A DNA stretch of 64,000 nt from Minisyncoccota bacterium (GCA_041663045.1 JBAZRH010000001.1:148403-212402); one strand, 5' to 3'; positions 13,172 to 30,535 are shown, counted from the stretch's first letter. Numbers and translations: made by a program. Notes: generated by a model not told the origin, from the sequence alone.

Positions 13172-14194
13172 TTATTTATTAATTATTCTTACGATTCCTT
13201 TATCCGCATCGACTTCTATTAAATCACCGTCTTTAAAAACTTGTGTGGCGATTTTGGTACCTATTATACAAGGTTTCTTTAATTCGCGAGCCACTATTGC
13301 CGCATGGCAAGTAATGCCACCCTCATCTGTGACAAAGCCGGCAGCCTTGAGCATGGCCGGAAGAAAATCTGGAGTAGTCATTGGTGATACAATAATTTCA
13401 TCTTTTTGAATATCTTTTACTTGGTCTCTACGTCGAAGGATTCTGACCTTACCCTGCACTATACCCTTAAAAGCGACTTGACCTTTTACATGCTTAATAT
13501 TTTCTGTTATACGTTCAATATTTAATTTACATTGTTTATACTTTTTTGAAAATTCTTCTTGGCTACCGACGAAAAGAATGTCCCCATCAATTAGTGAAGA
13601 GTTATTCATACGTTTAATAAGCTCGTCTTCAGATGGTAAAGATTCAATCTCTTCAGATAGAATAACGTTTGTATATTTAGCTATTTTGGGGAATAGTTCA
13701 CGAATCGTATTACCTATATAGATATCGTTAGACGCAAAGAAAGTGTCATCTTTCCTTATGTCTAGGATCTCATCTGTAATACGTTTTGGCGTTTTCTCAT
13801 TTGTCACGGTGTAGTACCACAAATTAAAATTGAACATTAATTCTTGTAAGAGAATCAGATATTCCCTAAACTCCTTTATGTCTTTTGCCGATTTATTTTG
13901 CCAATATTCTTTTATAATCGATAATTGGGCTCGATATTCATTAAGAGACGTCTTTAGAAGATCAGGATTACCTAGATTCTGCTCAAGTAGTTTATCCTTA
14001 AGCCACTGTGTCGCAAACTGATTATCCCAAACCTCTACTACACCATCAATCATGTGGTGAATAATTATTGGTAAGAATGGATTCTGCCAGCCAAGTTTTT
14101 CTTTGATTCCTCTCGAGAGTTGTTGTGCCCAAATCTGTTGAATAAGGATCGTTGTATCTCTAGTGTAGCTTTTTTCAAATATATATTTATTCAT
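13172..14194 (-). CDS. PEP-utilising-enzyme swivel (phosphohistidine) domain protein, paralog A
   Basis: 340 aa; C-terminal ...VKGQVAFKGIVQGKVRIL...[76 protein letters not shown]; divergent helical N-terminal ~240 aa. Confidence 0.85.
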   Translation of the reverse strand: MNKYIFEKSYTRDTTILIQQIWAQQLSRGIKEKLGWQNPFLPIIIHHMIDGVVEVWDNQFATQWLKDKLLEQNLGNPDLLKTSLNEYRAQLSIIKEYWQNKSAKDIKEFREYLILLQELMFNFNLWYYTVTNEKTPKRITDEILDIRKDDTFFASNDIYIGNTIRELFPKIAKYTNVILSEEIESLPSEDELIKRMNNSSLIDGDILFVGSQEEFSKKYKQCKLNIERITENIKHVKGQVAFKGIVQGKVRILRRRDQVKDIQKDEIIVSPMTTPDFLPAMLKAAGFVTDEGGITCHAAIVARELKKPCIIGTKIATQVFKDGDLIEVDADKGIVRIINK

Positions 14195-14197
14195 ATA

Positions 14198-15532
14198 CTA
14201 TTTTATAATCTTAACCACCCCCTTATCCGCATCGACTTCTATTAAATCACCGTCCTCAAATATACTTGTAGCATGTTTTGTACCGACAATACAAGGTCTT
14301 TTCAACTCTCTAGATATAATAGCCGCGTGAGATGTTAGACCTCCTTCGTCTGTCACTATTGCAGAAGCGAGGCTCATTATTGGTAAAAATTCTGGGCGAG
14401 TACTTGTTGTTATAAGAATTTCCCCCTTTTGAAATTTTCCGAATTGGTGTTCTTTCAATACAATTTTTGCGATGCCTTGCACGACACCCTTACAGGCGAC
14501 TGTGCCTTTCGCGATTTTATTTTTGTCTTTTGACGTCATCCCTTCTATCACTTCCAGGGCGTTATCTTCTGTAAGTAATTTGGGAGGATTGTACTGTGGC
14601 GATATTAGAAAGACACTTTGTCTCTTACGTTTCAAGATAAAATCATTATCTTTTTTAAGTAATTCAATTTCCTCTGGTCTTGCCCAAATAAGATCATTGT
14701 AAGAGACCCCCTCTGTTTTTGATGCTTCGTGTATTATCGTGCTATAACAAACACTCATCATTTGCATATATACTTTCCTCTCTTCTCTCCACAGAGTGAA
14801 AATCTGAAGAAGATGAATAAGATTTTGCGTTTTTTCACTGAGTTTTGGGAGAAGCATTTGTTGTTCAGCTTCTCTCTTCAAATAATCTGTTGGAACCGGT
14901 TTAGGTAAGAAGTCTGCCCCTAGCATCTTTTCTGTAAGAACTTCTCCGCCAATCCAACTTCCTTTATAGTACCAATATTTTTTGATATATTCTTGTTTCG
15001 TCATCTTCCCTTGAAGAACTAATTCAAAATCAATCGCCGCTTTCTGTGTCCTAGTCGGCTCTATCGTCGCAATCAACCCATGAATATGCTCTTTATCTAT
15101 CCCAACTTTTTCTAACTCTTCGGAGATTTGCTTATCGATTTCTTCAGCGAAAGGATCTAGAGATTCAACAAAGTAAGACTCCATCCAAAACTCTGCAGCA
15201 AGGGTATCTACTTCTTTCCACATCTCTTTCCAGTCTTTTATTGGCTTATTTGTAATATTAAATAAATAATTCTCTTTTTTCTGCCATTTCTCTTTCCAAG
15301 ATATGAATCTTTTTGTTACAAATTCTTTTGAAACGCTTACCCAATATTTCATAAGTCCTTCGCTTGCACGCTTTTCAATAAACCATCTAGAAACCCCATT
15401 ATTGTTTATGACGACGAGTAATGCTTTTGTAACGAGGATTACTCCTATGGAGCAGGAATAATAAAACAATGGTGCTGATTCAGCCGATCCTGTTAGGAAA
15501 AAGTCTTCTTTTTTAAATTTCCATCTATCCAT
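14198..15532 (-). CDS. PEP-utilising-enzyme swivel domain protein, paralog B
   Basis: 444 aa; C-terminal TDEGGLTSHAAIISRELKRPCIVGTKHAT...DADKGVVKIIK; N-domain contains IFTLWREERKVYMQMM motif shared with other paralogs. Confidence 0.85.
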   Translation of the reverse strand: MDRWKFKKEDFFLTGSAESAPLFYYSCSIGVILVTKALLVVINNNGVSRWFIEKRASEGLMKYWVSVSKEFVTKRFISWKEKWQKKENYLFNITNKPIKDWKEMWKEVDTLAAEFWMESYFVESLDPFAEEIDKQISEELEKVGIDKEHIHGLIATIEPTRTQKAAIDFELVLQGKMTKQEYIKKYWYYKGSWIGGEVLTEKMLGADFLPKPVPTDYLKREAEQQMLLPKLSEKTQNLIHLLQIFTLWREERKVYMQMMSVCYSTIIHEASKTEGVSYNDLIWARPEEIELLKKDNDFILKRKRQSVFLISPQYNPPKLLTEDNALEVIEGMTSKDKNKIAKGTVACKGVVQGIAKIVLKEHQFGKFQKGEILITTSTRPEFLPIMSLASAIVTDEGGLTSHAAIISRELKRPCIVGTKHATSIFEDGDLIEVDADKGVVKIIK

Positions 15533-15547
15533 ATTTATTTCGTTATA

Positions 15548-17113
15548 TTAATCTTTTATTATCCTTACGATTCCCTTATCTGCATCCACTTCCACCAAAT
15601 CCCCGTCTTTTAGCACCTTTGTGGCAATCTTTGTGCCTATTATACAAGGAATACCTAGCTCTCTTGAAACAATCGCGGCGTGGCAACTAATACCTCCCTC
15701 ATCCGTGATTATAGCGCCAGCAATTTTCATTGCAGGAACATAGTTTGGCATAGTCATACTCGTCACAAGTATTTCCCCAGCTTCTAATTTACCTATCTCA
15801 TTTGCAGAATGTAATACTTTCACAATACCTTTAACAAGTCCTTTGCATGCAATATTTCCCTTAAATGTATCGACTCTTTCTGTCTTTTTTTCAATTATCT
15901 CTTTTATTTTTTCACCGATTGCTATATCTAATTCGTATATTGTGTCTTTAGTATATATGACAGCATACCCGCCACTTCTTTCAAGGATCTTGTTTAGATT
16001 GATCTTTTCTCCAAGCAAGAAATCTGTGATTTCCCAGAAATTGAATAGGCAGATTTTCTTATGATTATCTAGTCCAGCCCTTTTTCCTATTTCATAAAAT
16101 AGATTTTGAACTTTATAGCACACCTCTTCTAGTTTCTCTACTCTTAGTAAACGAATGTGCGCCAAATCAGATGCCTGATGTGCATAAGTAATAACAACTT
16201 TATTTAATCCAGCCTCTTTTATTATTTGTTTTTTTGCTTTAATAAGTCTTTTCTTTGCTTCTTCAATCTCATTTAGTTTTTTCTGTGGATTTTCTCCGAG
16301 TACCTTTTTTAGGTTATTAATAAAATCAGCAAAGCTCTCATAATTAAATCTAAGTTCGGCGTCTGGAATCCAGGCATATTTTTCATAAACATTTTTGATT
16401 ATCTTTATCTGATTGTCTTTAACACCGCTTAAATTTTCATTTAGTGATTGTACATCTACAAAAGTCGATATTTTTATTGCAAGTTTTATCAAAGATTCCT
16501 CTTTTTCTTGAATAGTTGAAATAGTTTCTGAAGAAGTTAAAAGACGTAAGCTTTCCTGTAGCTCTTCATAATTATTGATTGGATTATATACTTTTGATAG
16601 TTCCTCAGTAATTATTCTTATTAGTCCATCTTCTGCTAAAAGCGGTGGCCATAGGTAGACCAATACATTAAATGAGAAATTAAGATATTTTTCATAATAT
16701 TTAAGTAATTTCTTGTCACACATAACAGAAAAATCTATTTTACTTGTTTTATCTGCCCATGTATCAAATAATTTACATTCTTTATATAACCCTGAAAATA
16801 GTTTATCTAAATACCGATAATCTTCTCTGCACTTCTTTTCAAATAGTACTTTGATTTTATCGGCGTTTTCTTCCTGGGAGTATACGTCGTAGTTTAGAGT
16901 CATTATCTTATCCATTTTATTTTTCAGACCAAAATCTTCCCTATCTGAAACACATCCAACACGGATGAGAGAGTCAAAAAGAGGAGAGTTTAACCTCTTT
17001 AAAACTTTGAACCACTTTTCAGAAGCCAGAGTACCAATTTCTTGTCCAGAGATCGTATTAGTTAAGGTTTTATAATCACCTTCTGATATTTTTATCTTTC
17101 TCGTATTTTTCAT
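15548..17113 (-). CDS. PEP-utilising-enzyme swivel domain protein, paralog C
   Basis: 521 aa; C-terminal [53 protein letters not shown]; 4-nt overlap with next gene. Confidence 0.85.
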   Translation of the reverse strand: MKNTRKIKISEGDYKTLTNTISGQEIGTLASEKWFKVLKRLNSPLFDSLIRVGCVSDREDFGLKNKMDKIMTLNYDVYSQEENADKIKVLFEKKCREDYRYLDKLFSGLYKECKLFDTWADKTSKIDFSVMCDKKLLKYYEKYLNFSFNVLVYLWPPLLAEDGLIRIITEELSKVYNPINNYEELQESLRLLTSSETISTIQEKEESLIKLAIKISTFVDVQSLNENLSGVKDNQIKIIKNVYEKYAWIPDAELRFNYESFADFINNLKKVLGENPQKKLNEIEEAKKRLIKAKKQIIKEAGLNKVVITYAHQASDLAHIRLLRVEKLEEVCYKVQNLFYEIGKRAGLDNHKKICLFNFWEITDFLLGEKINLNKILERSGGYAVIYTKDTIYELDIAIGEKIKEIIEKKTERVDTFKGNIACKGLVKGIVKVLHSANEIGKLEAGEILVTSMTMPNYVPAMKIAGAIITDEGGISCHAAIVSRELGIPCIIGTKIATKVLKDGDLVEVDADKGIVRIIKD

Positions 17114-20100
17114 TTTTTCTTATTTAATAATCTTACCACCCCCTTATCTGCATCCACTTCCACTAAATCTCCATCTTTAAGCACCTGCATAGAGTGTAAA
17201 CAACCGACAATACAAGGGATTTTTAATTCTCTGCTTATTATAGCCGCGTGAGATGTTATACCGCCTTCGTCAGCAATGATGGCAGCCGCTTTTCTCGCTA
17301 TTGCCATCATATTTGGCTGGGTCATACTTGTCACGAGAATTTCACCTTCTTTAAAGTCCTTTATACTTTTTTGTAGCATATCCAAATCTCCAGCTATAAC
17401 CTTCCTGACTTTTCCCGTCGCCTTTCCCAACATAGCAATTTGACCCTTTATTGTATTATCAATATTGATAATTTTCTTAATTTTTTCTTTAAAAAGATTA
17501 TTTGCTTCATCTGCTCCAACAACTCTAAGTTTATTATCACTTATTATAATTGCATAGGATTCTTTTCTGTCTACGATTATTGATTTTATATTTCCACGAT
17601 GTGTTCCATTTAACAATTCAATTGTCTCTGGTGGGGTAACAAAATCTAGCATATCAGATAGAGAGATATTAATTCTCTTTGATACCTCATTTAATAAATG
17701 CCTAGATAAATAATACGATCCTGCCCAATATGATTTTATATTCATCCTCTCGATTGATTGGTATTGTAAAAAGTCGGATAAATATTTTACTTCGTCACTT
17801 TCTGATCCAATTTTTCTGTAAATATTCTCCTGTCCTCTTCTGAGCTTCTCCTTATCTTCTTTTAATTTAGAATATTCTAGTCTATACGTATTTTTTTCAG
17901 ATTTTTTTCTATTCTCAAGAAACTTGAGAGTCCTTTTATCGTCGTATTGGCCGAAGACAAGCCAAGGATACTTTGATAGATGTTTTAGTAAAATCGAGTC
18001 ATCGTGTTTTTTTGATAAAATACTTAGCCAATCTAAATATTCTCTTTGTATATCATCAAGAGAAAGCGGAGTTGATAATATACCAAAAACTCTCGGCCAA
18101 TCATTATTAAAATATTTTCTAATAATCTCTTCTAATCTCTGCTCGGCTTTATAAGTAAATTCTGTCCTAGTGCTTCCAAAATATGCTATCGAATCTTTAG
18201 CGTGATCAATAAAAGAATTATAATCTTTAATTATTTGCCCATTTGTATATCTCGAAAAATCTACCGATTCGATTTTTCTCACCCAATTCCACCATTTCTT
18301 TGCTGCTACCCTATACTTAGATTTGTATTTATTGAAATATTTCTCGTCTAGGTATTTTTCTCCAATTTCTTTGAATTTATCTAGCTGTTTTTTAGGCATA
18401 TAAGTTGTGATCACCGATCCATCAAAATAACAGAATATTTCACCCTCTCCATATATATCCCCGTGAGTTATCAAGGCCTCTGAAGTAGTCCATGATGCTG
18501 GCATTATAGGAGTCGTACTCCACATAAAGACCCATTCATCGTTATTTTTTTCTGATATTCCAACCTCTTTTTTAAGTATCTTTATTACTCCCTTATCCGC
18601 ATCGACTTCCACCAGATCTCCATCTTTGAAAACTTGCGTGGCGATTTTGGTACCGACAATACATGGGATTTTTAATTCCCTGGAAATAATTGCCGCGTGG
18701 CAAGTTAAACCCCCTTCATCTGTAACAATAGCTGCGGCATTTTTTAAATAAGGGACAATTTGAGGGTTGGTCATACCAGAAACTAATATTGTACCGGGAG
18801 GAATATCGGCTCCATTCATAAGACTAAGATGTATTTTGACTGGACCTATCGCTTTTCCATGAAAAGCGATATTTCCTTTTACTTCAGCAACGTTTTGGGG
18901 TTCCAAGATTTTTTTCCAGGACAAATATTCGTTACCAGTTAAAAGATCGTTGCTTACCTTTCTGTATGGTAACAATGCCAAACCATTCATCCTCTCATTA
19001 AGCTCGTCCTTGTTTGGCACTCTTTGTCCATACAAGATCTCTTCTATTTCACAACTTCTAAGCGAGAAAGCTTGATTTAACGTAATGTGATGTTTATCAG
19101 CTAATCCCTGCATAAAATCAGTGAGGATCTCAAATAACGGACCAAGAGAGTTGTGTATTTTGAATTTCAATTCACCGAGTTTTATTAATCTGTTCAAAAT
19201 AGATTTTTGTTGTTTATTGAATTTTAATTTCGTAGCATAAGTTGAATCGTGTAATGCTTTTATTAAATTACTTTCTGTTTTAGCTGCTTTTATTATAATG
19301 TTTTCCAACGCTACCAGAACAGGTTGTTCACAGTATAAATATAGATTGCCTATTTTATCAAATAAATTTTCTATTATTTTCCATCGAGATATTTTATCTT
19401 TATCTGAAACTTTATCTAATTTGGTCTGAAGAGACTCTGGCTTTAACTCTTCGGCCAATTTTTTTAACTCTTTTATTTTTTGATTAGCAAATTTGTCATT
19501 TAAGAGTTTTTCTCCAAGATCAAATGCTTGTCTTTGGCCTTCTTTACTCAGATATCCAGCGATATGATCGTCTTTCTGTAAGACAACATAATCAATTTGG
19601 CCATAATTTTTTGGACGAAAAGCTATATCTGTGAAAATAAAAGGAAAATCTGTTTGACGAAAATGAAGTATATAAGAGTCTCTTTCTTCACTGTTTTTAT
19701 CTTTCAAAATCTTAATCACGCCTTTGTCTGCATCCACCTCGATTTCATCACCATCTTTGATAATTTGAGTGGCAATTTTTGTATCTATAATACATGGCTT
19801 ATGAATTTCTCTCGAGACTATGGCGGCATGACATAATAATCCACCTATATCTGTGATTATGGCAGAAGCCTGTTGCATCAAGATAACAAAATCTGGCGTT
19901 GTCATTGTGGACACTAGAATATCTCCAGCTTTCATTTTATGAAATTCATCTCTATTTATAACAACTCTAGCAATTCCTCGGACTTTTCCAGGATATGCTA
20001 CTACGCCTTTTGTTTCCTTCGCGTCTTTATCGGCATGAGGCAACATCTTGTCTTTTAAGTATTCAATATCTTCTTTATCCTCAATAACAATAGAATTTTC

Positions 20101-20766
20101 TTCCTTGTTGGCAAATAGAAACCAGTTTAAATCTCTCCTCCTTATTCCTCGTTTTTTTAGTTCATCTTTTTCAATTTCTCCTTTTAGTCCGGAAAGTATT
20201 TCAGTTGGAGAAAGCATTGTAAATTGACGATATTCTAGATTCAACTCTTTCGCTACAGCATGAAATAGCGGATATGCTTTGGCTGAAAGCATTGAAAAAT
20301 ATTCCGTAGAAACTTGTTTTACATAACCACAAGCGTGCATACACTCTGCACAAAATTCTAGTTTTTTAGAAACTTTCGGTAAAACCTTTTTTGTATGTAC
20401 CCCAGCATCTTTCGAATGAATTATTTGCTCATAAAGTCTGTCAACGGTTAATAATTCACCCACGAAGTTCAAGACTTCAATCCACTCATATTTTTCTGCA
20501 TGTTCCTCAAGCTTCTTTAATAGTGTTTTATTTTTCTTAACTTCTTTAAGGGTTTTGTTTCCGATTAACTTTTTAAGTTTCAAAACTTCTTGTTGTTGGA
20601 TTGTCAGTGGCGAAATAACCTGAGGTATTAAATCAGGTACAAGATCGGCTGGAAACTTTTCTTTGACGACTATATCCGCTAAAACTTCTTCAGATGCTTC
20701 AACAAGAAAAGTCGCACCCAGAAGCCATATAAAATTTAGCTTTCTAATTTCACCGAAAAGTTCCAA
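17110..20766 (-). CDS. triple-module PEP-utilising swivel domain protein (three N-domain + swivel units in one ORF), paralog D
   Basis: 1218 aa from the TTG/first-Met call. Swivel domains at approx nt 19712-19990 ([25 protein letters not shown]), 18585-18850 ([25 protein letters not shown]) and 17113-17400 ([25 protein letters not shown]). The reading frame stays open upstream to nt 21129 with no ATG. Confidence 0.8.
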   Translation of the reverse strand: MELFGEIRKLNFIWLLGATFLVEASEEVLADIVVKEKFPADLVPDLIPQVISPLTIQQQEVLKLKKLIGNKTLKEVKKNKTLLKKLEEHAEKYEWIEVLNFVGELLTVDRLYEQIIHSKDAGVHTKKVLPKVSKKLEFCAECMHACGYVKQVSTEYFSMLSAKAYPLFHAVAKELNLEYRQFTMLSPTEILSGLKGEIEKDELKKRGIRRRDLNWFLFANKEENSIVIEDKEDIEYLKDKMLPHADKDAKETKGVVAYPGKVRGIARVVINRDEFHKMKAGDILVSTMTTPDFVILMQQASAIITDIGGLLCHAAIVSREIHKPCIIDTKIATQIIKDGDEIEVDADKGVIKILKDKNSEERDSYILHFRQTDFPFIFTDIAFRPKNYGQIDYVVLQKDDHIAGYLSKEGQRQAFDLGEKLLNDKFANQKIKELKKLAEELKPESLQTKLDKVSDKDKISRWKIIENLFDKIGNLYLYCEQPVLVALENIIIKAAKTESNLIKALHDSTYATKLKFNKQQKSILNRLIKLGELKFKIHNSLGPLFEILTDFMQGLADKHHITLNQAFSLRSCEIEEILYGQRVPNKDELNERMNGLALLPYRKVSNDLLTGNEYLSWKKILEPQNVAEVKGNIAFHGKAIGPVKIHLSLMNGADIPPGTILVSGMTNPQIVPYLKNAAAIVTDEGGLTCHAAIISRELKIPCIVGTKIATQVFKDGDLVEVDADKGVIKILKKEVGISEKNNDEWVFMWSTTPIMPASWTTSEALITHGDIYGEGEIFCYFDGSVITTYMPKKQLDKFKEIGEKYLDEKYFNKYKSKYRVAAKKWWNWVRKIESVDFSRYTNGQIIKDYNSFIDHAKDSIAYFGSTRTEFTYKAEQRLEEIIRKYFNNDWPRVFGILSTPLSLDDIQREYLDWLSILSKKHDDSILLKHLSKYPWLVFGQYDDKRTLKFLENRKKSEKNTYRLEYSKLKEDKEKLRRGQENIYRKIGSESDEVKYLSDFLQYQSIERMNIKSYWAGSYYLSRHLLNEVSKRINISLSDMLDFVTPPETIELLNGTHRGNIKSIIVDRKESYAIIISDNKLRVVGADEANNLFKEKIKKIINIDNTIKGQIAMLGKATGKVRKVIAGDLDMLQKSIKDFKEGEILVTSMTQPNMMAIARKAAAIIADEGGITSHAAIISRELKIPCIVGCLHSMQVLKDGDLVEVDADKGVVRLLNKKK

Positions 20767-21110
20767 TATATTATTAAAGGAGGCACTCTTATCTTTTAGT
20801 GTACCCGCATATTCTATCGCACCTTTGCATACTGAATCGCAAACTTTTTTTGCATTATCAAAAAAAACTTTATCCCCATTAATAATTTTATTTTTAATCT
20901 GACCTTGTACAAATGTGGCTAAAGATTTTTTAACAATAAAATTACCCCCCGCAAGCGAGCTCGTCCCTGTTTCCGGTATATTTAGCCCTAGTCTATCTGC
21001 TATCTCTTTATTATAACAATCTTCCCAAAAACAAGATGATAAAATATCATTTTTCCATAGACCATAAAATTTCTGATCATCTACATTAAAACTAGCTAAT
21101 TCAGGAGAGT

Positions 21111-22106
21111 TTAGTTTTTTTTTACTTCTTCAGCTTTTGCCTCTGCTCTTATTGAATCTTTATTTGTCAGCGTAGTGATGGGCCTGCTTTGTACTATATA
21201 AAATTTTCCTTTTTCAAAAGCCCATTCTATATCGCAAGGGAAACCATAATGATTCTCGATTTTCATTATTAAATCTGCGAATTCAAAGATTTGTTTTTCA
21301 GTGAGTACTTGAGATGATGCTTTTGGTTCAGAAATATCGATCCACTCATTGCCACCAGTTGAAACTCTATATAAACCTCTTGCTTGTGTTGAAATATTTG
21401 TATCGATAATTCTTCTCGGATCCTTCTCGACAACATATGAATCTGGTGTTATCTGTCCAGACACTATGGCTTCCCCAAGACCAAATCCAGCTTCTATAAT
21501 CATCTGATTTCTGTCTTCGGTAACAGGATGTACAGAGAAAGCTATACCGGAAACTTCAGAATTTACCATTTTTTGTATGACGACAGCGACTGAAATCTTT
21601 GTCTCGTGTAAATCTTTTTCAAATCTATAAAAAATAGCTCTCGGAGTGAAAAGTGATGCCCAGCAATGCTGAACTTTTTCTAAAACATTTTTCTCTTTAG
21701 TATTTAAATATGAATCAAGTTGTCCTGCCCAAGCGTTTTCTGCGCCGTCTTCTGCGGTGGCGGACGAACGGACGGCTACGAATTCGGTATCTAACTTTTT
21801 AAACTGCGACATTATCTCTTTCGCAATATTTTCTGGCATATCGGCGTTTTTGATAAGACTTTGAATTTTCTCTGAAGCGACTTCAACACTATTTATATCT
21901 TTGTGATTTACTGTATGTAAAACAGTATCTATTTCTTCAGAAAGATTTGCACCTTTTACGAATTCATCGAAAGTAGTTGAGAGGACGACAAAACCCGGCG
22001 GCACTGGTATTCCTGCCTGTGTCATTTCTCCAAGTGAGGCGCCTTTTCCACCGGCAATATCGGCATTGCTTTTATTCAATTCTCTGAAATGCAACGTTAA
22101 TTTCAT
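21111..22106 (-). CDS. PEP synthase / pyruvate-phosphate dikinase N-terminal ATP-grasp (nucleotide-binding) domain protein, stand-alone
   Basis: 331 aa; IAGGKGASLGEMTQAGIPVPPGFVV ... VAVRSSATAEDGAENAWAGQLDSY ... CDIEWAFEKGKFYIVQSRPIT covers Pfam PPDK_N end to end; no swivel or TIM-barrel domain; stop codon sits inside an A9 run. Confidence 0.85.
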   Translation of the reverse strand: MKLTLHFRELNKSNADIAGGKGASLGEMTQAGIPVPPGFVVLSTTFDEFVKGANLSEEIDTVLHTVNHKDINSVEVASEKIQSLIKNADMPENIAKEIMSQFKKLDTEFVAVRSSATAEDGAENAWAGQLDSYLNTKEKNVLEKVQHCWASLFTPRAIFYRFEKDLHETKISVAVVIQKMVNSEVSGIAFSVHPVTEDRNQMIIEAGFGLGEAIVSGQITPDSYVVEKDPRRIIDTNISTQARGLYRVSTGGNEWIDISEPKASSQVLTEKQIFEFADLIMKIENHYGFPCDIEWAFEKGKFYIVQSRPITTLTNKDSIRAEAKAEEVKKN

Positions 22107-22165
22107 ACTGGAAACTATAACAAATTATATATCACTTGGGAAGCTTATTTTTAGTGATAAAAGTG
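22107..22165 (-). promoter_or_regulatory. candidate extended -10 promoter for the PPDK_N gene
   Basis: minus-strand TGATATATAAT ~22 nt upstream of the ATG at 22106; weak -35. Confidence 0.3.
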
Positions 22166-22191
22166 AATAAAACATAGCTCAATTTTGCCTA

Positions 22192-22220
22192 TTGACTTTT
22201 ATATCTAAGTATGCTATCCT
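22192..22220 (+). promoter_or_regulatory. candidate sigma70-type promoter of the GC-rich island gene 1
   Basis: TTGACT-17 nt-TATCCT followed by AAGGAGG Shine-Dalgarno 7 nt before ATG at 22288. Confidence 0.3.
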
Positions 22221-22287
22221 TTCAGGCAGGATACAGGATTGGTACCTGTATGTGTAGAAAACGAAAACAACAGAAGGAGGCGTCAAA

Positions 22288-22923
22288 ATGACGCACAGCA
22301 AACGTAAACTGGTGGCGGTGTTTCAGAGACATGGTGCCACAAACAAAGCGCAAGCGGGTCAGCATGATCTTACCCGCACGCTAAGCGAGGAAGGACGGAA
22401 GCAGGCGGCGTTGATTGGGTCAAAGATCGGTTACAAAATTGACCTTATCATCTCGTCTGCTGCTGGGCGCGCGGTGGAAACAGCATGTATCACGGCACGG
22501 GCGGCGGGTCAGCTCCCGGATGGGGTTCAGCACTTCGCCGAAGATGTGCTTTATCCGCACGAGCATACCTATCCGATTTTGGACGCAGCGTTCAAGAAAA
22601 TCGGGTATGCGCCGCTCGCGAGCTATCTCCTCGACCCAAATGTGGTAAAGGAGACCGCAGCTTACGCGATACGTGCAATGGGCAGGATATGGGAAATCAT
22701 CAACGAGGCCGACTCCGGTCTCGAAGATGAAAAGCAGCCGTTTGTTGTGTTAATAACCTCACACGCCGTCTGCGCCAATATCCTGGCACGGAATATGCAA
22801 CTCGGTACCGACGCGACGCTTGAGGACCTCGTCCTTGTCGGCAGTACGTCAATGGATGCCGGGTCAGCGATCGTGATTGAGCTCGAGGATGACAAGTCCT
22901 CGGCCAAATATATTACGCCGTGA
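22288..22923 (+). CDS. histidine-phosphatase-superfamily protein, SixA-like (phosphohistidine phosphatase-like)
   Basis: 211 aa; RHG motif (VFQRHGAT), LISSAAGRAVETA and LITSHAV second-His motif in the order/spacing of E. coli SixA; strong AAGGAGG RBS; GC-rich codon usage unlike neighbours. Confidence 0.6.
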   Translation: MTHSKRKLVAVFQRHGATNKAQAGQHDLTRTLSEEGRKQAALIGSKIGYKIDLIISSAAGRAVETACITARAAGQLPDGVQHFAEDVLYPHEHTYPILDAAFKKIGYAPLASYLLDPNVVKETAAYAIRAMGRIWEIINEADSGLEDEKQPFVVLITSHAVCANILARNMQLGTDATLEDLVLVGSTSMDAGSAIVIELEDDKSSAKYITP

Positions 22924-22945
22924 TCTGAATATACGGCAAAAAAGA

Positions 22946-23004
22946 CCTCGTTTTGACGAGGCATGGCGGGGGGAACACAATGTTGTGAACCCCGCCTTTT
23001 TATT
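22946..23004 (+). terminator. rho-independent terminator (two hairpins + T-run)
   Basis: CCTCG-ttttga-CGAGG then GGCGGGGGGAACACAA-tg-TTGTGAACCCCGCC followed by TTTTTATT. Confidence 0.6.
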
Positions 23005-23056
23005 ACCCAAATATTCATATTTATAGGCATATTCTTATATAATCTCTATTATGTGC

Positions 23057-23084
23057 TTGACAAGTACTATAAAAGGTGTATAAT
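23057..23084 (+). promoter_or_regulatory. consensus sigma70 promoter
   Basis: TTGACA - 16 nt - TATAAT, perfect consensus hexamers, ~58 nt upstream of GTG start at 23143. Confidence 0.6.
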
Positions 23085-23142
23085 GGGATGGGTAGATGTT
23101 AATTTGAAATAAAACGGTAAAAACCGTGGAAAGAGGTGAAAA

Positions 23143-23616
23143 GTGAGTGCAAATACAAAGCGGATTCTATGTGTGTGCTACGGCAACAGCGACAGGAGTC
23201 CGGCGATGGCGGCGGTACTCAACATGTATCTCAAGAACGCCGGGTACAAGACTTATTGTGAAAGTGCCGGCGTCGGGGAAAATGCTGCGAAAGGCGGTTC
23301 GGCTGCAAAGTTTGCGATTGACGCCTGTAGTCAGATTGGTCTCAATATCTCGGGTCACGACAAGCGTCGGACGACGACGCTCGATCTTAACAGCTACGAT
23401 CTTGTCGTCTGTGCAGACTGTTTGGTCGCCGAGATGCTCATCAAGCAAGGTTGCGACATCGGCAAGATATACAATGCCGAGATTCCCAATCCATGGCCGG
23501 TGAAGTTCAAAGCACAGTACACCGAGACATTCCAGCGAATCCTCGCCGCAATGTATCTCGTCGTGGACCGATACTTCGTCAACATGAATGAAGTGGACGG
23601 TCCGCAAGGTGGTTAA
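23143..23616 (+). CDS. low-molecular-weight protein phosphatase family protein (LMW-PTP / ArsC / YwlE-like)
   Basis: 157 aa; N-terminal P-loop ILCVCYGNSDRSPAMAA = C-x5-R-(S) signature of LMW-PTP/ArsC family; GC-rich. Confidence 0.6.
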   Translation: MSANTKRILCVCYGNSDRSPAMAAVLNMYLKNAGYKTYCESAGVGENAAKGGSAAKFAIDACSQIGLNISGHDKRRTTTLDLNSYDLVVCADCLVAEMLIKQGCDIGKIYNAEIPNPWPVKFKAQYTETFQRILAAMYLVVDRYFVNMNEVDGPQGG

Positions 23617-23637
23617 GCTAAAGAGCTGAAACCGCCG

Positions 23638-23673
23638 GAGCCCAACTGTAAAAAGTTGGGCTCTATTTTTTTT
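23638..23673 (+). terminator. rho-independent terminator
   Basis: GAGCCCAACT-gtaaaa-AGTTGGGCTC followed by TATTTTTTTTAT. Confidence 0.65.
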
Positions 23674-25114
23674 ATATTATTCTTATAATTCCCTTTTCGG
23701 CGTCTAGCTCTACTTTGTCGCCATCTTTCAATACTTTAGTTGCTATTTTTGTACCGATAATGCAAGGAATATTTAATTCACGAGAGATTATAGCGGCATG
23801 GCAAGTGATTCCGCCTTCATCTGTGATTATTCCCCCAGCACGTTTAATAAGAGGTGCAAAATCAGGAGTCGTCATACCTGTGACAATAATATCTCCATTA
23901 TCAAAATTATTCACATGAGAACTTTTTAGTACACGTACCTTCCCTACCACTTTTCCTTTATTCGCAACTTGTCCATGAATTTCCTTTATATCTTTATGAT
24001 CGGTTTTCCACGGCACATTTAACTTTATTAGAAGTTTTCTAGCATTGGAACCTTCATGATATGTACTTCCTTTATCAGAATTTGTTTCTATCACAATATC
24101 CATTCTGTTTTTTATATTTATGCTTATATCCTTTCCAGATATTGCGAGCCTTGCCAGTCTCGGGTCAAGATACCTTGCTTCATCTAAAGTCAGATTTAAT
24201 TTTGAAGCGGCCCATTTAAGGATTATATCATTGAAATAATAACAGATTTGGGCACTAAGCATCTTTCTGTCGTCCTGCATCAAAGACAGGTTTCTCATTA
24301 TCTTGAATAAATAGTTTGTCTCTTCAGAGAATTTATATTTCTCCTGATACTCTTCTTGTAGCAAAACAATATCAATGTTTTGTGAAGTTTTATTATATTC
24401 TTTTGATACCAAAGTTTCTTCAACTCTTTTTGATACAGTTTCTTCTGTCCAGACTATAGGTCCCACATATTCATATGGAAACCAGAAGTATTTATCAGAG
24501 AATATCTTTATGGCTTCTTTAGTATTGATATTTTCTAATCCATTGGACTTGGCTATTTTTAGCAGATTTTTAAATTCCTCTTCTTCTATCTGGCTATATG
24601 ATTTTTCTTGATGACTGACCATTATAGGTAATATTTTATGTGCCTCATCTATGCCGTATTCTTTAAGATGATTTAGTAATTGTCTTTCGGCCTCGGCTCC
24701 ACCAAAAAGCCACAGAATCATATTTTTACGCATCAATTCTTGATAAGTGATTATGAATTTATCAAAGAAATCTGGGAAGCTTTCAATATCTCTGTTTACA
24801 CAAGTATCGGCGAATTCTTTACATAAATCCACCGCTTTTTGCCCGGCTTCTATGCCCTCTTTTCTTATCTTCTCAAGATTATCTTTATTTTCCCAAAGTA
24901 TTTTAAAAGCCCCTTCATTTCTGTCTTTTGAGAATTCTTTTTCAACTACTGCTGTGAAGTGACCGTTTTCCCATATCTCTAGAGATATCCCTCTTTTAAT
25001 TTTTAAATATTCGCCAAGAGGCCAAGAAAAATATGCTGACAAAGGAAAAAGAGCTGGTATATACCTAGTACGCACCATTATCCAGTCTTCTGGTTTATAT
25101 TTCTTTTCAGGCAT
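23672..25114 (-). CDS. PEP-utilising-enzyme swivel domain protein, paralog F
   Basis: 480 aa; C-terminal [51 protein letters not shown]. Confidence 0.85.
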   Translation of the reverse strand: MPEKKYKPEDWIMVRTRYIPALFPLSAYFSWPLGEYLKIKRGISLEIWENGHFTAVVEKEFSKDRNEGAFKILWENKDNLEKIRKEGIEAGQKAVDLCKEFADTCVNRDIESFPDFFDKFIITYQELMRKNMILWLFGGAEAERQLLNHLKEYGIDEAHKILPIMVSHQEKSYSQIEEEEFKNLLKIAKSNGLENINTKEAIKIFSDKYFWFPYEYVGPIVWTEETVSKRVEETLVSKEYNKTSQNIDIVLLQEEYQEKYKFSEETNYLFKIMRNLSLMQDDRKMLSAQICYYFNDIILKWAASKLNLTLDEARYLDPRLARLAISGKDISINIKNRMDIVIETNSDKGSTYHEGSNARKLLIKLNVPWKTDHKDIKEIHGQVANKGKVVGKVRVLKSSHVNNFDNGDIIVTGMTTPDFAPLIKRAGGIITDEGGITCHAAIISRELNIPCIIGTKIATKVLKDGDKVELDAEKGIIRII

Positions 25115-25128
25115 ATCTTTTGAGTCTC

Positions 25129-26001
25129 CTATCCTTGAGCTATTTGTTCCACAACAGAGAGATCAATTTCTTCATCAATACTAAAATCATTTAGAGGTGT
25201 ATCGCTCTTTTTGCTATATTTCAAGTGTAATGTAGGTTTTTCTGATCCAGCTTTTGTAATAACATCCAATTCAAATCCTTCCGTTACATCAAAACCGGTA
25301 TTTTTTAATGCTTTTATAAGTTTATTTCTCTCCTCGATGCCTTTTGTCATTTCTACAACTTTCATCAAGAAACTTTCTGCAATACCTTGATGGGTAGCAA
25401 AGAATCTTTTCATTTCTGGTTCATATTTATCACTTTTTTCTTCGACGAGCTTATTCCATCTTGGAGCAATATTAAAATATTTTAAGACAATTTCCGCTAC
25501 GCCTTTTGCTTGACGAGAATATGTTAGCTGTCCTTCAAAACCTTGTTCTTTTGCCAGTGTGTCGCTTTGATCTGCCAAAAATTCCATGAATTTTCCTTTA
25601 GTGAAAGCGTCTATCGCTTGTTTTTCATACTCTGTCTTTCCAATAGAAAAGTCGAGACGTGAATCTACATTGAATTTTGAGCCGTAAGCCAAATCTTTAT
25701 CAATCTTAGTTTTTAGTTCTTCCAATGTCTCGTTACCGGTTATTTCGTCTTCTCCTCCAGCCATCACAAAACCTGCTGTTTCCCAGGTGCGTTCTTTTGT
25801 AGAGACGAAAGCCACAGATTGATCTATATCACTTCCCTTTTCAGCCTTGTTTTTAGCTTGCATACGGCCTCCTGGAGTAAGTCGGATTTGTTCATCTGTC
25901 TTTGTTTTATCTTTCTCTTTTTCGCCATGGCGGAAGAAGTTTAGAATTATTTCTGATTGATATTCTCTTATTGCCTCCGGACTTTTGATTTGTGATTCCA
26001 T
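25129..26001 (-). CDS. histidine-phosphatase-superfamily (PGAM/SixA-like) protein, native composition
   Basis: 290 aa; FFRHGEKE (RHG catalytic motif) near N-terminus and ATHQGIAE second His motif near C-terminus. Confidence 0.5.
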   Translation of the reverse strand: MESQIKSPEAIREYQSEIILNFFRHGEKEKDKTKTDEQIRLTPGGRMQAKNKAEKGSDIDQSVAFVSTKERTWETAGFVMAGGEDEITGNETLEELKTKIDKDLAYGSKFNVDSRLDFSIGKTEYEKQAIDAFTKGKFMEFLADQSDTLAKEQGFEGQLTYSRQAKGVAEIVLKYFNIAPRWNKLVEEKSDKYEPEMKRFFATHQGIAESFLMKVVEMTKGIEERNKLIKALKNTGFDVTEGFELDVITKAGSEKPTLHLKYSKKSDTPLNDFSIDEEIDLSVVEQIAQG

Positions 26002-26004
26002 ATT

Positions 26005-26865
26005 TTATTTATTATTTAATTTTTTACTATTAATCCAAGCTGCTAACCACTTAACATGAAAAGAAAAATCTTTTTCATTTCTACTATTGTCTTCGTATGG
26101 CCTTTTGCACACCACTCTCGGCGCTGCCATTATCCTTCCTCCAGAGAGCAGGATCGCTCTAAAGAGTTGATTTCCTACCATACCATTTACTGGAACAATG
26201 ACATTTGCACCGTCTTCTACGGCTAAGTCCAAATCAATAGACCAATTCTTTGCATCGTAACCGAGTTTCTTGAGTTCGGAGACAATCCACTCAGTATCTT
26301 CATATGTTTTATTTAAAATTCCTACAACACCATCTTTAATGTCTTTTTTCCTTTTATATGTCTCATGGCGTACGCCGGTGAAGACAGCTATTTTCGGTTC
26401 AACTCCCCACTTCTTTGTAAATTCTGCTATACCTTTTGCTATTTCAAATCTCTCTTCTTTATTCCAACCCTCTGGATTACTACAAAGGCCACAAAAGAGT
26501 TGATCTCCTTTTGGTGTTTCCATTAGGCCAGGATTAAGATCGAAGTGCTCACCCGTTATCTTTTTATAAGCATCGGCTGTTTTAAAATCATCAATTGTTC
26601 CTCTGATTATTCCCTCAACTTCATCGCTAGCCAGCATAGAGGCGATTTTTTGTTCAGGATTTTCATCAATAACTAATTTAAAGCCCTTTACGTCTTTTAT
26701 TGCGCCTGGGCCTACCAAAGTAATGTCTGCATACTCACTCATCTTGCTTAGGCAATCCAATATCTCTTTATCTGGAGTTGCCAAGCCAAAAGCAATATTT
26801 ACCCTGCCCTTCGCTGCAAGTTCTTCTACTTTTTTTGTGAAAGCCCCAAGTTTCTTCGTCGTCAT
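26005..26865 (-). CDS. PTA/PTB-family (phosphate acyltransferase-like) protein
   Basis: 286 aa; ADITLVGPG, SDEVEGIIRGTIDDFKTAD, LFCGLCSNPEG, EPKIAVFTG, VIVPVNGMVGNQLFRAILLSGGRIMAAP align motif-by-motif with the Pta/Ptb/PlsX fold. Confidence 0.45.
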   Translation of the reverse strand: MTTKKLGAFTKKVEELAAKGRVNIAFGLATPDKEILDCLSKMSEYADITLVGPGAIKDVKGFKLVIDENPEQKIASMLASDEVEGIIRGTIDDFKTADAYKKITGEHFDLNPGLMETPKGDQLFCGLCSNPEGWNKEERFEIAKGIAEFTKKWGVEPKIAVFTGVRHETYKRKKDIKDGVVGILNKTYEDTEWIVSELKKLGYDAKNWSIDLDLAVEDGANVIVPVNGMVGNQLFRAILLSGGRIMAAPRVVCKRPYEDNSRNEKDFSFHVKWLAAWINSKKLNNK

Positions 26866-26866
26866 A

Positions 26867-27946
26867 TTATTGCTTTGTTTGTCCTTTTAATAATTGGTCA
26901 ATATCAAGACAGGTTTTTTCTATGAGAGAATGCATAATAGCCATCTTTTGTTCATTATAAGAAAAATCTTTCCAATCACCGCTTTTTGGTCTATCCATAT
27001 AAGCCCTTTCATTGCATTCAATCTGAAGCGCATTTACGCCCATATTTCTACCTGCTCCACCCCAGAATTTGACATTGTGAACACCTTTCATATAATAATT
27101 TCTGATAAATAATTCACCCTTAATATCCTCTGAAATTAATTTCTTTTCATCTTCCGGTAAAGATTCATAGTTTGTTTTCAGGGCTTTTTCAAACGCTTCT
27201 ATAATATCGTCATCGCAACCTTCTCCATCTCTCGTGCCCAAAATAAACATTGGCATCATCTCTGGATCAGGAATACCATAGTGATCATACCAAGTCTTTG
27301 TATCAGCTGTAACAGGAAAAGAATGTCCATCTACAAGAAGAATCCTCTCCTCTTTTCTATTCTGCCTTTTATCTGCCATAGCTCCGACAGCACCCATAAC
27401 AGTATTGTAATAAGGCAGATAATATCTCTCCGCCCAATTCTCTGCTTCTTCTGCGGTCGGTTGCATATCTTCTTTGTACATAGGGCCGAATTTTGCACCC
27501 TTTGTCCAAAGTATTGTGCCCGGAGCTTTCCCCTTCTCATACTTTTTATCCAAATCAAATTCTGGTGCTCTGTTTGGGTCGACGACAAACCTAGATATAC
27601 CAAACTTTACCCAAGGTATTGTCTTGCTTTTAAATATTTCGGGTGTTCCAAGATCTGTAAGCGCAAGAGTTTCTGTGCCTTCTTCTGTCAGCCTATCTTT
27701 TAAGCTTTCTGGAGCATACTCTCCGGCGTGTGGTAATCCAATAATAACATTTGGACAGCCGTCTCTTGCTATCGGGCTAGTATCACTTTCTACCGCTTCA
27801 TTACCAGTTATCTCTTCTTGCCTCATTTCTGGACGAGACGGTAAACCCAAAGCTTCAAGTGTATTGTAAACTTTTTCGAGTTTTTCTCTTCTTTCTGTTC
27901 GAGAGTCCGTATCTGCGAAAGGAAATTTTGGAGGATGTTCGGTCAT
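26867..27946 (-). CDS. N-formylglutamate amidohydrolase (FGase)-family zinc hydrolase-like protein
   Basis: 359 aa; GLPHAGEYAP, LLVDGHSFP, LQIECNERAYMD correspond to the three conserved FGase blocks. Confidence 0.45.
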   Translation of the reverse strand: MTEHPPKFPFADTDSRTERREKLEKVYNTLEALGLPSRPEMRQEEITGNEAVESDTSPIARDGCPNVIIGLPHAGEYAPESLKDRLTEEGTETLALTDLGTPEIFKSKTIPWVKFGISRFVVDPNRAPEFDLDKKYEKGKAPGTILWTKGAKFGPMYKEDMQPTAEEAENWAERYYLPYYNTVMGAVGAMADKRQNRKEERILLVDGHSFPVTADTKTWYDHYGIPDPEMMPMFILGTRDGEGCDDDIIEAFEKALKTNYESLPEDEKKLISEDIKGELFIRNYYMKGVHNVKFWGGAGRNMGVNALQIECNERAYMDRPKSGDWKDFSYNEQKMAIMHSLIEKTCLDIDQLLKGQTKQ

Positions 27947-28005
27947 ATTTTTAAATTATTTAATAATGTCAATTATATCACTATTTTTATCCATCTCAAT
28001 AGACA

Positions 28006-29697
28006 CTAGCTCAGAATTCTCACCGTCCCGTGATTTGCTCTTACTTCTATGAGATCTCCATCTTTGATCATTTGTGTAGCTCTTTGTGTACCGATAATGC
28101 AAGGTTTACCAAGTTCTCGTGAGACAATCGCCGCGTGACAGGTGATACCACCTTCATTTGTGACAATTGCGGAAGCTTTTTTCATAAGCTGGATAAATTC
28201 TGGACGAGTCATACCCGTGACCAATATTTCTCCCTCATTAAATTTGTGAAAGTCTTCTTGACCAAGAATGATACGGGCGATACCTTTTACATAACCCTGA
28301 CAAGCCACTTGTCCAGACAAAATCTTTTCCGGTGCTTGCCCGAGTATTCTCTTTTCCATTTCATCGGATATTGATTGAGCCTCGGCTCCCTCTATTATCT
28401 TATAACCGCCACCGACTGTGGAGATCATCATTCCGTGCTCGTATCTTTTCTTTAATTGATTTAAAGATATAAGTCCTTTGAGTACATTTGGCACTTCATC
28501 AAATACTATATGTTTAAGATATTCATAAGGAATACTGGCTTTTATCTCAATTGCTTTCAAGACATAGTGCATTGAGTGAATACCCATAAGGTTAATCTGT
28601 TTTCTATATTCTCTCCAAAAGACCAATTTCTGAAAGAAAAATAGTGGATTCTGTTTTAAATTGTGTTTCTTAAGAACAGCGTCGATATTAGCTTTAACCG
28701 TTTTTTCATATCTCTTAATTTCTTCACACTTCTTTTTCCAGTCTTTGTCGCAGAGACATTGTTCTACTTCGTCAAATATCTCATCTAGCGTTATGTGATT
28801 CATATGAGCGTAGTTTGATTTATAGTAATCAAAGTCCAATATATATTTAGCTACATCTTTTGATCTTGAGAGATATTCTTTTATCTTTGCCGGTTTCTGT
28901 TGGAGTTTATTTTTAATTATCTTTTTTACTATTTCATAAAGTTTCAATAGACGTTCATTGTTGAAAGTCATAACTTCAGGTGTGGTAAGTGTAGAGACTT
29001 CTTCTGCGGTAAGTGCAAATTGTCTTTTTATTTCCTCTGTCTTTTTTACATCAAAACCGGCGTCGAATGAATCTATAAACAAACTCATTTGCCAGAAGCC
29101 GGCATAAGCATCAAATATTTCTTTCGTAAAGCTGACGATTTCTTCCGCAGAATAATTTAATATTTCATCGGCAGAATGTGAGAGATATATATTCTTTATA
29201 GCGTTCGCGTGTATATTGAATTCATCGAATAATTTTTCTAACTCTTTTTTGTCATTATATCTTTTGTATACCTGCTTTGAGAAATCAAGCATTATCTTTT
29301 TGTCCCAATAGACTTTCATATAATTTCTCTTGAAGAAACCTAAGTGATGGGTAGTAAAATCGCCAAACCAGTCGGTTGGTTGACTTTCAAATCCTAAGAA
29401 TGCCGGAATAGCTGTAAAAGGGATAATGTCACCCTCTTGTCTATAAGGTTCGTAAAATGCTGTTGTAAGATCATGTGACGTCTGCACTTTCTTTTCTTCA
29501 GTTGAAATTTTGAAAAGGTCAGCGGGCTGTATTTTGTATTTTGAACAAAGCTTTTCTAATGTATCAAATTTGATGCCATCAATTTTATTGTGAAAAATAG
29601 CTGTGATGGTATTACGATTGAGACCAGTTTCCCTCGCAATGTCGGATATACTCTTGCCCATTTTCTCGGCTATCTCTTTTAATTTGATTGTTATCAT
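28006..29697 (-). CDS. HTH (XRE-family) DNA-binding domain fused to PEP-utilising swivel phosphohistidine domain
   Basis: Start re-set to MITIKLKEIAEKMGKSISDIARETGLNRNTITAIFHNK (classic XRE helix-turn-helix). C-terminal [30 protein letters not shown] swivel. Shared WREYRK motif in the middle domain. Confidence 0.75.
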   Translation of the reverse strand: MITIKLKEIAEKMGKSISDIARETGLNRNTITAIFHNKIDGIKFDTLEKLCSKYKIQPADLFKISTEEKKVQTSHDLTTAFYEPYRQEGDIIPFTAIPAFLGFESQPTDWFGDFTTHHLGFFKRNYMKVYWDKKIMLDFSKQVYKRYNDKKELEKLFDEFNIHANAIKNIYLSHSADEILNYSAEEIVSFTKEIFDAYAGFWQMSLFIDSFDAGFDVKKTEEIKRQFALTAEEVSTLTTPEVMTFNNERLLKLYEIVKKIIKNKLQQKPAKIKEYLSRSKDVAKYILDFDYYKSNYAHMNHITLDEIFDEVEQCLCDKDWKKKCEEIKRYEKTVKANIDAVLKKHNLKQNPLFFFQKLVFWREYRKQINLMGIHSMHYVLKAIEIKASIPYEYLKHIVFDEVPNVLKGLISLNQLKKRYEHGMMISTVGGGYKIIEGAEAQSISDEMEKRILGQAPEKILSGQVACQGYVKGIARIILGQEDFHKFNEGEILVTGMTRPEFIQLMKKASAIVTNEGGITCHAAIVSRELGKPCIIGTQRATQMIKDGDLIEVRANHGTVRILS

Positions 29698-29725
29698 AAA
29701 AATACTAATGCTTATAATAAGCACA

Positions 29726-29777
29726 AGTATAGCATATCCACATATAATTGCAAGTAGTTGCCTAGTGTACTAGGCAA
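29726..29777 (-). promoter_or_regulatory. candidate promoter (TTGCAA-16-TATACT) with adjacent 9-2-9 palindromic operator TTGCCTAGT-GT-ACTAGGCAA
   Basis: minus-strand -35 at 29748-29753, -10 at 29726-29731; perfect palindrome 29758-29777 immediately upstream of -35 and immediately downstream of the preceding gene stop. Confidence 0.4.
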
Positions 29778-29784
29778 ATCATAC

Positions 29785-30531: not shown

Positions 30532-30535
30532 AATA

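Follow-up and report, generated by a model that had tools for sequence, protein, structure and literature searches.

To our knowledge, in every characterized RPH-type dikinase a single ATP site serves a single acceptor site. RPH itself (Listeria RPH-Lm; PDB 5HV1, 5FBS) consists of an ATP-grasp domain, a large helical acceptor-binding domain, and a C-terminal swivel domain whose histidine accepts ATP's beta-phosphate at the ATP-grasp domain, with release of AMP and Pi, and then swings to the RIF-binding domain to phosphorylate the drug (PMC4844700). HpeHI, CreHI, and PpsAB (phenylphosphate synthase) use the same chemistry but carry their ATP-grasp domain on a polypeptide of its own; HpeH holds the acceptor-binding and swivel domains, and its complex with HpeI is only transient (PMC12167813). 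Here we describe a 64-kb stretch of DNA (the window), part of a 428,695-bp contig from a Candidatus Paceibacterota metagenome-assembled genome, that contains 20 genes with 23 modules and one ATP-grasp (PPDK_N) domain, a module being a helical acceptor-binding domain (X) followed by a phosphohistidine swivel domain (S). Two long open reading frames (ORFs), of 1218 and 996 aa, carry three modules (M1 to M3) and two modules (996-M1 and 996-M2), respectively. We put the probability at about 0.6 that both encode multi-module RPH-like dikinases, the 1218-aa ORF being the distal part of an ATP-grasp-(X-S)3 protein and the 996-aa ORF an (X-S)2 protein, with modules charged in cis or in trans. The building blocks are already known from three-domain dikinases of the RPH type and from their two-component variants. 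Our searches of the searchable literature turned up no description of several complete acceptor-plus-carrier modules behind one ATP-grasp domain, of an array of this scale in a reduced genome, or of multi-module or multi-swivel proteins in candidate phyla radiation (CPR) bacteria or DPANN archaea.

Both ORFs translate without a stop, the first at 17110-20766 and the second, of 996 codons, at 46435-49425, both on the minus strand. PF00391 matched three stretches of the 1218-aa ORF (E 1.2e-71, 236.7 bits) and two of the 996-aa ORF (E 1.8e-51, 172 bits), against a Pfam gathering cut-off of 23.1. The catalytic histidines are His313 (LLCHAAI), His690 (LTCHAAI), and His1173 (ITSHAAI) in the former and His450 (VLSHASV) and His954 (ITCHAAI) in the latter. 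All five swivels have the catalytic-histidine loop T/S-x-x-G-G-x-x-x-H described in PMC12167813, in the forms TDIGGLLCH, TDEGGLTCH, ADEGGITSH, TDEGGVLSH, and TDEGGITCH. Ahead of each swivel lies its own, mostly helical N-domain of 263-390 aa; these N-domains are ~20-34% identical among themselves and to those of neighboring genes, and swivel-to-swivel identity is 40-79% (mean, 55%). The linkers between modules are 5-25 aa of sense sequence with no stop-then-start remnant. Junctions and genes were cross-checked in the Logan assembly of run SRR18595301, which is independent of the source assembly: contigs 100% identical to window positions 43435-49749 and 14225-18666 reproduced, free of stops, the 996-aa gene in full as well as the junction of M2 with M3, with the M1/M2 junction (~19700) and a run of nine A residues discussed below lying outside their cover. 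An earlier note on this DNA had listed three and two His-bearing swivels, a divergent helical domain before each, and the lack of stops between modules, and our data agree with it on all of these.

The domain ahead of each swivel ties these proteins to RPH. A profile built on 47 single-module homologs matched RPH (5HV2, 5FBS) over the ATP-grasp domain, the RIF-binding domain, and the swivel, with profile positions 409-808 aligning to RPH 470-878 (RIF-binding domain plus swivel); true PEP synthases aligned to it only over the ATP-grasp and swivel domains. Compared by hhalign with the M1-type domain, M3 (98.4% probability), 996-M1 (99.6%), and 996-M2 (98.9%) aligned over nearly their full length, and most other array genes of 330-400 aa were likewise homologous to it. 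We made AlphaFold2 (AF2) models of M2 and of the ATP-grasp domain plus M1 (804 aa, reconstructed as described below). For the latter, Foldseek placed RPH 5HV1 first, in a full-length alignment (E 3e-41, ~910 aligned columns); the low TM-score (~0.37) is probably due to different domain placement. HpeI 9GOJ was among the top matches for the ATP-grasp part (E 4e-25). For M2 (predicted local distance difference test [pLDDT] score, 88.5; predicted TM-score, 0.80), the best PDB fold was again RPH (E 5e-12, ~410 columns, TM-score 0.34).

By sequence match, the best PDB entries were the ATP-grasp and swivel domains of PEP synthase and pyruvate phosphate dikinase (PPDK; 8A8E, 9DAE). These enzymes have both domains in common with the window proteins, but their swivel is central and is followed by the PF02896 TIM barrel, for which neither ORF gave a match, and they have no counterpart of the helical X domain. 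The NCBIfam matches of the ATP-grasp gene were to the N-termini of PEP synthase, PRK06241, and RPH. All scores fell below the family cut-offs: 159.9 versus 999 bits (NF041857) and 127.9 versus 1700 bits (NF000283) for RPH, 321 versus 598 and 246 versus 598 bits for the PEP synthase equivalogs, and 95.6 versus 341.7 bits for Enzyme I of the phosphotransferase system (TIGR01417), where the swivel region alone matched, to the exclusion of the HPr-binding subdomain and the C-terminal PEP-binding domain. The prodigiosin ligases PigC, RedH, and HapC share the three-domain superfamily and are matched in the pre-swivel region, but they are single-module proteins and the score was 190 versus 1300 bits. 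RPH itself likewise has one module, compared to two or three here and up to six in relatives, and differs in sequence (~17-23% identity; 160 versus 999 bits) and in fold match (TM-score 0.34-0.37). Judged by their sequences, these proteins belong to the RPH-like superfamily and are orthologous to no characterized enzyme.

By itself, the 1218-aa ORF does not make up a complete gene. Next to it, upstream on the same strand, lies the 331-aa ATP-grasp ORF, whose TAA stop (21111-21113) directly follows a run of nine A residues (A9). No stop interrupts the frame of the 1218-aa ORF for 121 codons upstream, to 21129, no ATG, GTG, or TTG occurs in it upstream of the TTG at 20766, and we found no obvious ribosome-binding site ahead of that TTG and no promoter-like or terminator-like site on the minus strand between the two ORFs. 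Adding one A at the run (or a -1 slip) joined the frames into 1665 aa with a single stop at the end. The first 802 residues of this frame are colinear across the junction with intact proteins made of an ATP-grasp domain and one module, the reconstruction being 64.6% identical to P0013 over 804 aa and 58% identical to both P0025 and P0026, and the P0013 gene has ten A residues, in frame, at the equivalent site. In the AF2 model of the reconstructed ATP-grasp domain plus M1, the mean pLDDT was 90.9, with values of 88-98 over residues 331-450, which include the segment encoded by 20767-21114. Because the frame is open without a start, the homologs are colinear, P0013 has ten A residues, the model is confident across the join, and no promoter-like or terminator-like site intervenes, the real unit is most likely ATP-grasp-(X-S)3, of ~1665 aa, with the 331-aa ORF as its first domain. 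The earlier note had read the 1218-aa ORF as containing three complete modules; its three swivels on one frame stand, but the ORF is neither the whole gene nor home to a complete first module, as the first ~115 residues of X1 lie outside it. That note had overlooked both the adjoining ATP-grasp gene and the frameshift that parts the two.

By tblastn, the 64-kb window holds no second PPDK_N copy, 21111-22106 being the sole one there. The 1665-aa reconstruction has no exact match on record, a search of metagenome contigs for the A-run region with 7-12 A residues allowed returned no match (the source contig itself included), and genome contigs yielded no relatives of the 1218-aa protein. The A9 run may be an assembly error, a true mutation, or a recoding site.

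If the run is genuine, the head gene may be truly split or decaying, giving a free 331-aa ATP-grasp subunit, like HpeI, and a three-module frame that is either untranslated or begun at an internal start with a crippled M1. The 331-aa product is carried in both NCBI and JGI records, from the same contig only. Poly-A frameshifts accumulate in AT-rich reduced genomes. A free ATP-grasp subunit is also a known working arrangement (PMC12167813), and it would suit 20 proteins charged in trans. We nevertheless consider a split gene unlikely, if worth serious attention. The three-module frame has neither a start codon nor an obvious Shine-Dalgarno sequence; a TTG start would cost X1 ~115 well-folded residues; the 345 nt past the stop form an undecayed segment with conserved coding and a confidently predicted fold; and, within the first 221 homologs, every one of the 113 relatives with an ATP-grasp domain has it fused.

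Programmed recoding at A9, through a -1 ribosomal frameshift or transcriptional slippage, would yield free ATP-grasp domain and full protein at a fixed ratio, as in dnaX. The sequence A AAA AAA AAC is a classical slippery run with a zero-frame stop immediately after it, and both products would be sensible, the free domain for modules in trans and the tethered one for modules in cis. On the other hand, a frameshift-stimulating RNA fold was not found in the 93 nt downstream of the run, whose predicted folding did not surpass that of shuffled sequence (z +0.84), and the nearest ortholog simply has ten A residues in frame, making recoding improbable in our judgment.

Returning to ATP-grasp-(X-S)3 and (X-S)2 as dikinases, we infer from RPH, HpeHI, PpsAB, and CreHI how they may work. 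The ATP-grasp domain would bind ATP and phosphorylate the swivel histidine, with AMP and Pi released, and the charged swivel would return to its own X domain and pass the phosphate to a bound acceptor. Tethered modules would be charged in cis, and the free proteins (the one of 996 aa and the 18 with a single module) in trans, by the one ATP-grasp domain of the window. The 23 X domains are different, anciently diverged types, so each probably has its own acceptor. Given the RPH-like anatomy, phosphorylation of several substrates from one polypeptide, a role the earlier note had suggested, is most likely by analogy. The main effect of fusion would be to raise the local concentration of modules at the ATP-grasp domain or to fix their stoichiometry. 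The free proteins resemble HpeHI, CreHI, and PpsAB, in which ATP-grasp and acceptor-plus-swivel subunits are separate and work in trans: by domain content, PPDK_N is absent from the 996-aa ORF and from each of the 18 single-module genes, which gives them an HpeH-type make-up, and the modeled ATP-grasp domain matches HpeI. In those systems, however, one ATP-grasp subunit serves one acceptor subunit, whereas here one faces 23 modules, some of them concatenated, and they belong to aromatic catabolism, whereas this genome is that of a reduced Paceibacterota.

Several points weigh against a set of dikinases charged in cis and in trans. As assembled, the head gene is broken, so that this organism may not produce the tethered form, in which case M1 would be without its first ~115 residues. 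The order ATP-grasp, acceptor-binding, swivel on one chain is present for the ATP-grasp domain and M1 only after adding one A; as assembled the ATP-grasp domain is a separate ORF, and the 996-aa ORF has none. The enzyme role of every member of the clade is based on sequence or models, and the NCBIfam scores lie far under the cut-offs for RPH, PigC, and PEP synthase. M2 is the weakest link to the RPH-type domain, because only the last ~90 residues of its 263-aa N-domain are common to the other N-domains in hhalign and its TM-score is low. A single ATP-grasp domain would have to reach each of three swivels tethered to it, and a related two-module locus (L005) has no PPDK_N within 10 kb, where the phosphate donor could differ.

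In a bolder form of the dikinase reading, one ATP-grasp hub charging 23 modules, some tethered and most free, would constitute a kinase battery for many small molecules, with the interleaved phosphatases as the return path; at its sharpest, A9 would be a recoding or phase-variation site that sets how much of the hub is free and how much tethered. We offer this tentatively, as possible rather than probable. If it were true, scavenged metabolites could be trapped or activated, or toxic ones inactivated, in a minimal-genome symbiont.

The modules could instead be ligand sensors or regulators, with phosphorylation of the swivel histidine reporting or controlling ligand binding. One array gene carries an HTH_26 domain, some archaeal modules are fused to MerR, and many kinds of phosphatase occur in the array, one of them weakly SixA-like (E 3e-5, below cut-off). 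But the characterized relatives (RPH, HpeHI, PpsAB, and PigC) are all enzymes, and a DNA-binding domain is present in only 1 of the 20 genes; we find a sensory role doubtful.

Slightly less probable still is a histidine-to-histidine relay along the chain, which the earlier note had also raised, with only the last module phosphorylating an acceptor. One chain does carry several histidine carriers, and HpeH alone shuttles phosphate between two substrates, making reversible transfer chemically possible (PMC12167813). Every module, however, keeps a full acceptor-binding domain, the same modules occur elsewhere as single units (ATP-grasp linked or free-standing), and module order, which a fixed relay would need, is not conserved between organisms.

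The multi-module dikinase architecture recurs widely. Among the first 221 homologs, and writing A for an ATP-grasp domain and S for a module, we counted 70 AS, 54 ASS, 42 ASSS, 23 SS, 10 SSS, and 6 ASSSS proteins; an exhaustive search, which returned 3867 50%-identity clusters at E <= 1e-30 with part of the score due to the shared swivel domain, added one protein with six modules. This protein, P0228, is the longest relative (2648 aa; six swivels besides an ATP-grasp domain). Trp stands at invariant Gly positions (e.g., DEGW, and WW for GG), and the sequence looks as though a gene of an organism with code 25 (UGA = Gly; Gracilibacteria or Absconditabacteria) had been read with UGA as Trp.

Fused modules also exist as separate genes, which supports the end-to-end gene fusions proposed in the earlier note. 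Free-standing orthologs are found for M2 and for both modules of the 996-aa ORF (e.g., P0234 and P0233), and the N-termini of the free-standing M2 orthologs align with the M1/M2 linker. P0033 shows 58% identity through swivel, linker, and module; its partial swivel (the last 86 residues on the contig) looks M1-type by eye and is joined to a 996-M2-type module. The proposal that the recombination behind the array also produced the fusions was not supported: the fused modules are not close paralogs (N-domains 20-34% identical) and are nearer, in N-domain and swivel alike, to the orthologs of other organisms than to their neighbors. Swivels with a clear ortholog are 69-85% identical to that ortholog's swivel, compared to at most 61-72% for any other swivel in the window. 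Since swivels are nearest to the swivels of orthologs, X and S travel together as an old cassette; homogenization of the swivels by concerted evolution, which would have pointed to co-adaptation to one ATP-grasp domain, was rejected on the same comparison. We also rejected P0005 and P0001 as cases of shared M1-M2 and M2-M3 adjacency, as domain-level BLAST and alignment showed that their second and first modules, respectively, are not M2-type. Because MAFFT aligned the single-module rows, without exception, to module 2 of the 996-aa ORF, the two-module alignment was dropped in favor of models of the ATP-grasp domain plus M1 and of M2. Array genes lie -8 to +5 nt apart, so stop loss with a small frame adjustment would suffice to fuse neighbors, and we propose this route. 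The picture suggested by these sequence comparisons is one of ancient cassettes that have fused and split again many times, each lineage with its own combinations, rather than of recent recombination inside this array.

The same tight spacing means that a single assembly or sequencing error could lose the stop between two separate genes and merge them, and one suspicious homopolymer site does exist in this assembly. Such an origin of the fusions is very improbable given that the Logan assembly repeats the 996-aa gene and the M2/M3 junction identically, that more than 100 multi-module homologs come from other samples, and that P0033 is conserved across a swivel-linker-module junction joined, like the others, by sense sequence. 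A polyprotein cut into single modules after translation, the other origin raised in the earlier note, would suit autonomous modules with short linkers but is barely credible: family scans found no protease among the ORFs covered in and around the two clusters, the linkers have no common motif, homologs keep the fused form, and such polyproteins are not known from bacteria.

If the modules are active, these proteins would represent a way to multiplex a swiveling-domain enzyme, and a large unexplored set of small-molecule kinases would exist in CPR bacteria and DPANN archaea, whose metabolism is otherwise thought to be minimal. The database labels of these proteins, "phosphoenolpyruvate synthase" or "PEP-utilizing enzyme," mislead metabolic reconstruction of these lineages.

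Table 1. Features of the window and occurrence of the module types in other organisms. HMM, hidden Markov model; iE, independent E-value; LMW-PTP, low-molecular-weight protein tyrosine phosphatase.
Feature	Position	Strand	Basis or remarks
ATP-grasp (PPDK_N), 331 aa, annotated as stand-alone	21111..22106	-	Pfam PF01326, E 3e-99; record MFA6227013.1
9-A run, meeting point of ATP-grasp frame and 1218-aa ORF frame	21115..21123	-	Three-frame translation
Junction peptide of reconstructed fused product			EEVKKKLNSPEL / EEVKKKLNSPELASF
X1 (M1) acceptor-binding domain	20032..21114	-	First ~115 codons (20767-21114) upstream of listed ORF; colinear alignment with AS proteins
Swivel 1 (M1)	19702..20031	-	PF00391; swivel HMM iE 7.7e-49; His313 codon 19828-19830
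M1/M2 linker + X2 (M2, short divergent type)	18898..19701	-	Free-standing orthologs P0222-P0224, AS protein P0030; AF2
Swivel 2 (M2)	18571..18897	-	PF00391; swivel HMM iE 4.1e-48; His690 codon 18697-18699
M2/M3 linker + X3 (M3)	17458..18570	-	hhalign to M1-type; junction in Logan contig L004
Swivel 3 (M3)	17122..17457	-	PF00391; swivel HMM iE 5.6e-44; His1173 codon 17248-17250
Stop codon of 1218-aa ORF	17110-17112	-	
996-aa ORF, X of module 1	48280..49425	-	hhalign to M1-type; free-standing and AS orthologs
996-aa ORF, swivel 1	47953..48279	-	PF00391; swivel HMM iE 5.7e-48; His450 codon 48076-48078
996-aa ORF, linker + X of module 2	46765..47952	-	hhalign; P0033; free-standing orthologs
996-aa ORF, swivel 2	46438..46764	-	PF00391; swivel HMM iE 7.1e-51; His954 codon 46564-46566
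Surrounding array, 17 single-module X + swivel genes	13172..46433	-	Mostly -8 to +5 nt apart
Eighteenth single-module gene	57088-58527	+	
PP2C-like	11256-12002	-	
His_Phos_1	22288-22923	+	Adjoins ATP-grasp gene; weakly SixA-like, E 3e-5, below family cut-off
LMW-PTP	23143-23616	+	
His_Phos_1	25129-26001	-	
HAD	58545-59156	+	
M1 type elsewhere			Sole module after ATP-grasp (P0013); second module (P0002, P0003)
M2 type elsewhere			After ATP-grasp (P0030); free-standing, 381-387 aa (P0222-P0224, 53-60% identity)
M3 type elsewhere			P0001 module 2; P0124 module 3
996-M1 type elsewhere			Free-standing genes, 470-500 aa; directly after ATP-grasp
996-M2 type elsewhere			Free-standing, ~500 aa (P0233, P0241-P0244); directly after ATP-grasp

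Some 36 kb of the 64-kb stretch is occupied by this one paralog family, with N-domains all of different types. Two co-directional clusters, running from 49425 to 28006 and from 22106 to 13172, are each headed by a multi-module gene, and related loci show the same order, with a multi-module gene that contains an ATP-grasp domain in front and single-module genes behind it. An anti-phage defense reading of this variable-domain array was rejected, as PADLOC matched neither the ATP-grasp gene nor either of the two long ORFs. The single-module gene at 28006-29724 (minus strand) has an N-terminal Cro/C1-type helix-turn-helix (HTH) domain (HTH_26, E 2e-13), and MerR-fused modules occur in Woesearchaeota (P0202, P0203, and P0208); the HTH-fused module hints at a possible regulatory use.

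Five phosphatase-type genes from four superfamilies lie within or beside the array. SixA, which the one adjoining the ATP-grasp gene weakly resembles, is a phosphohistidine phosphatase; the window protein has no exact match on record. Phosphatases accompany modules in related loci as well, with LMWPc near the modules of L002 and, near those of L005, a His-phosphatase-like gene (RH and SHS motifs by eye, no family match), PPase, and a faint PP2C match. This company, as read from the sequences, hints at cycles of phosphorylation and dephosphorylation. L005 (positions 7977-11540; JGI 3300037810, from the SRR18595301 project) contains two free-standing module genes, one of them an M2 ortholog, with the His-phosphatase-like gene upstream and the inorganic pyrophosphatase gene downstream, and a transposase and a restriction-modification system nearby.

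The GC content is 46% at 22001-24000, compared to 32-38% in adjacent 2-kb windows; this segment holds both plus-strand phosphatase genes of the region between the two module clusters and may be a foreign insertion there. Two non-module genes lie inside the array, both on the minus strand: one at 26005-26865 that is Mmp4/MtxX-like (2e-21, below cut-off) and one at 26867-27946 whose product falls in the N-formylglutamate amidohydrolase family (FGase, 1e-28). Between the main array and the lone plus-strand module gene at 57088-58527 lies a group of five tRNA genes (Val-CAC, Ala-GGC, Ala-CGC, Pro-CGG, and Ala-TGC), at 53577-54303 and 56697-56770. Three ORFs of 456, 402, and 264 aa, at 3647-6218 and 54981-55775 (minus strand), have no match in Pfam, NCBIfam, or PADLOC. 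A Cas4-like PD-(D/E)XK nuclease is encoded at 8347-9156 (minus strand) and adjoins an ATP-cone plus Mrr_cat restriction-endonuclease-like protein at 9157-10014 (minus strand).

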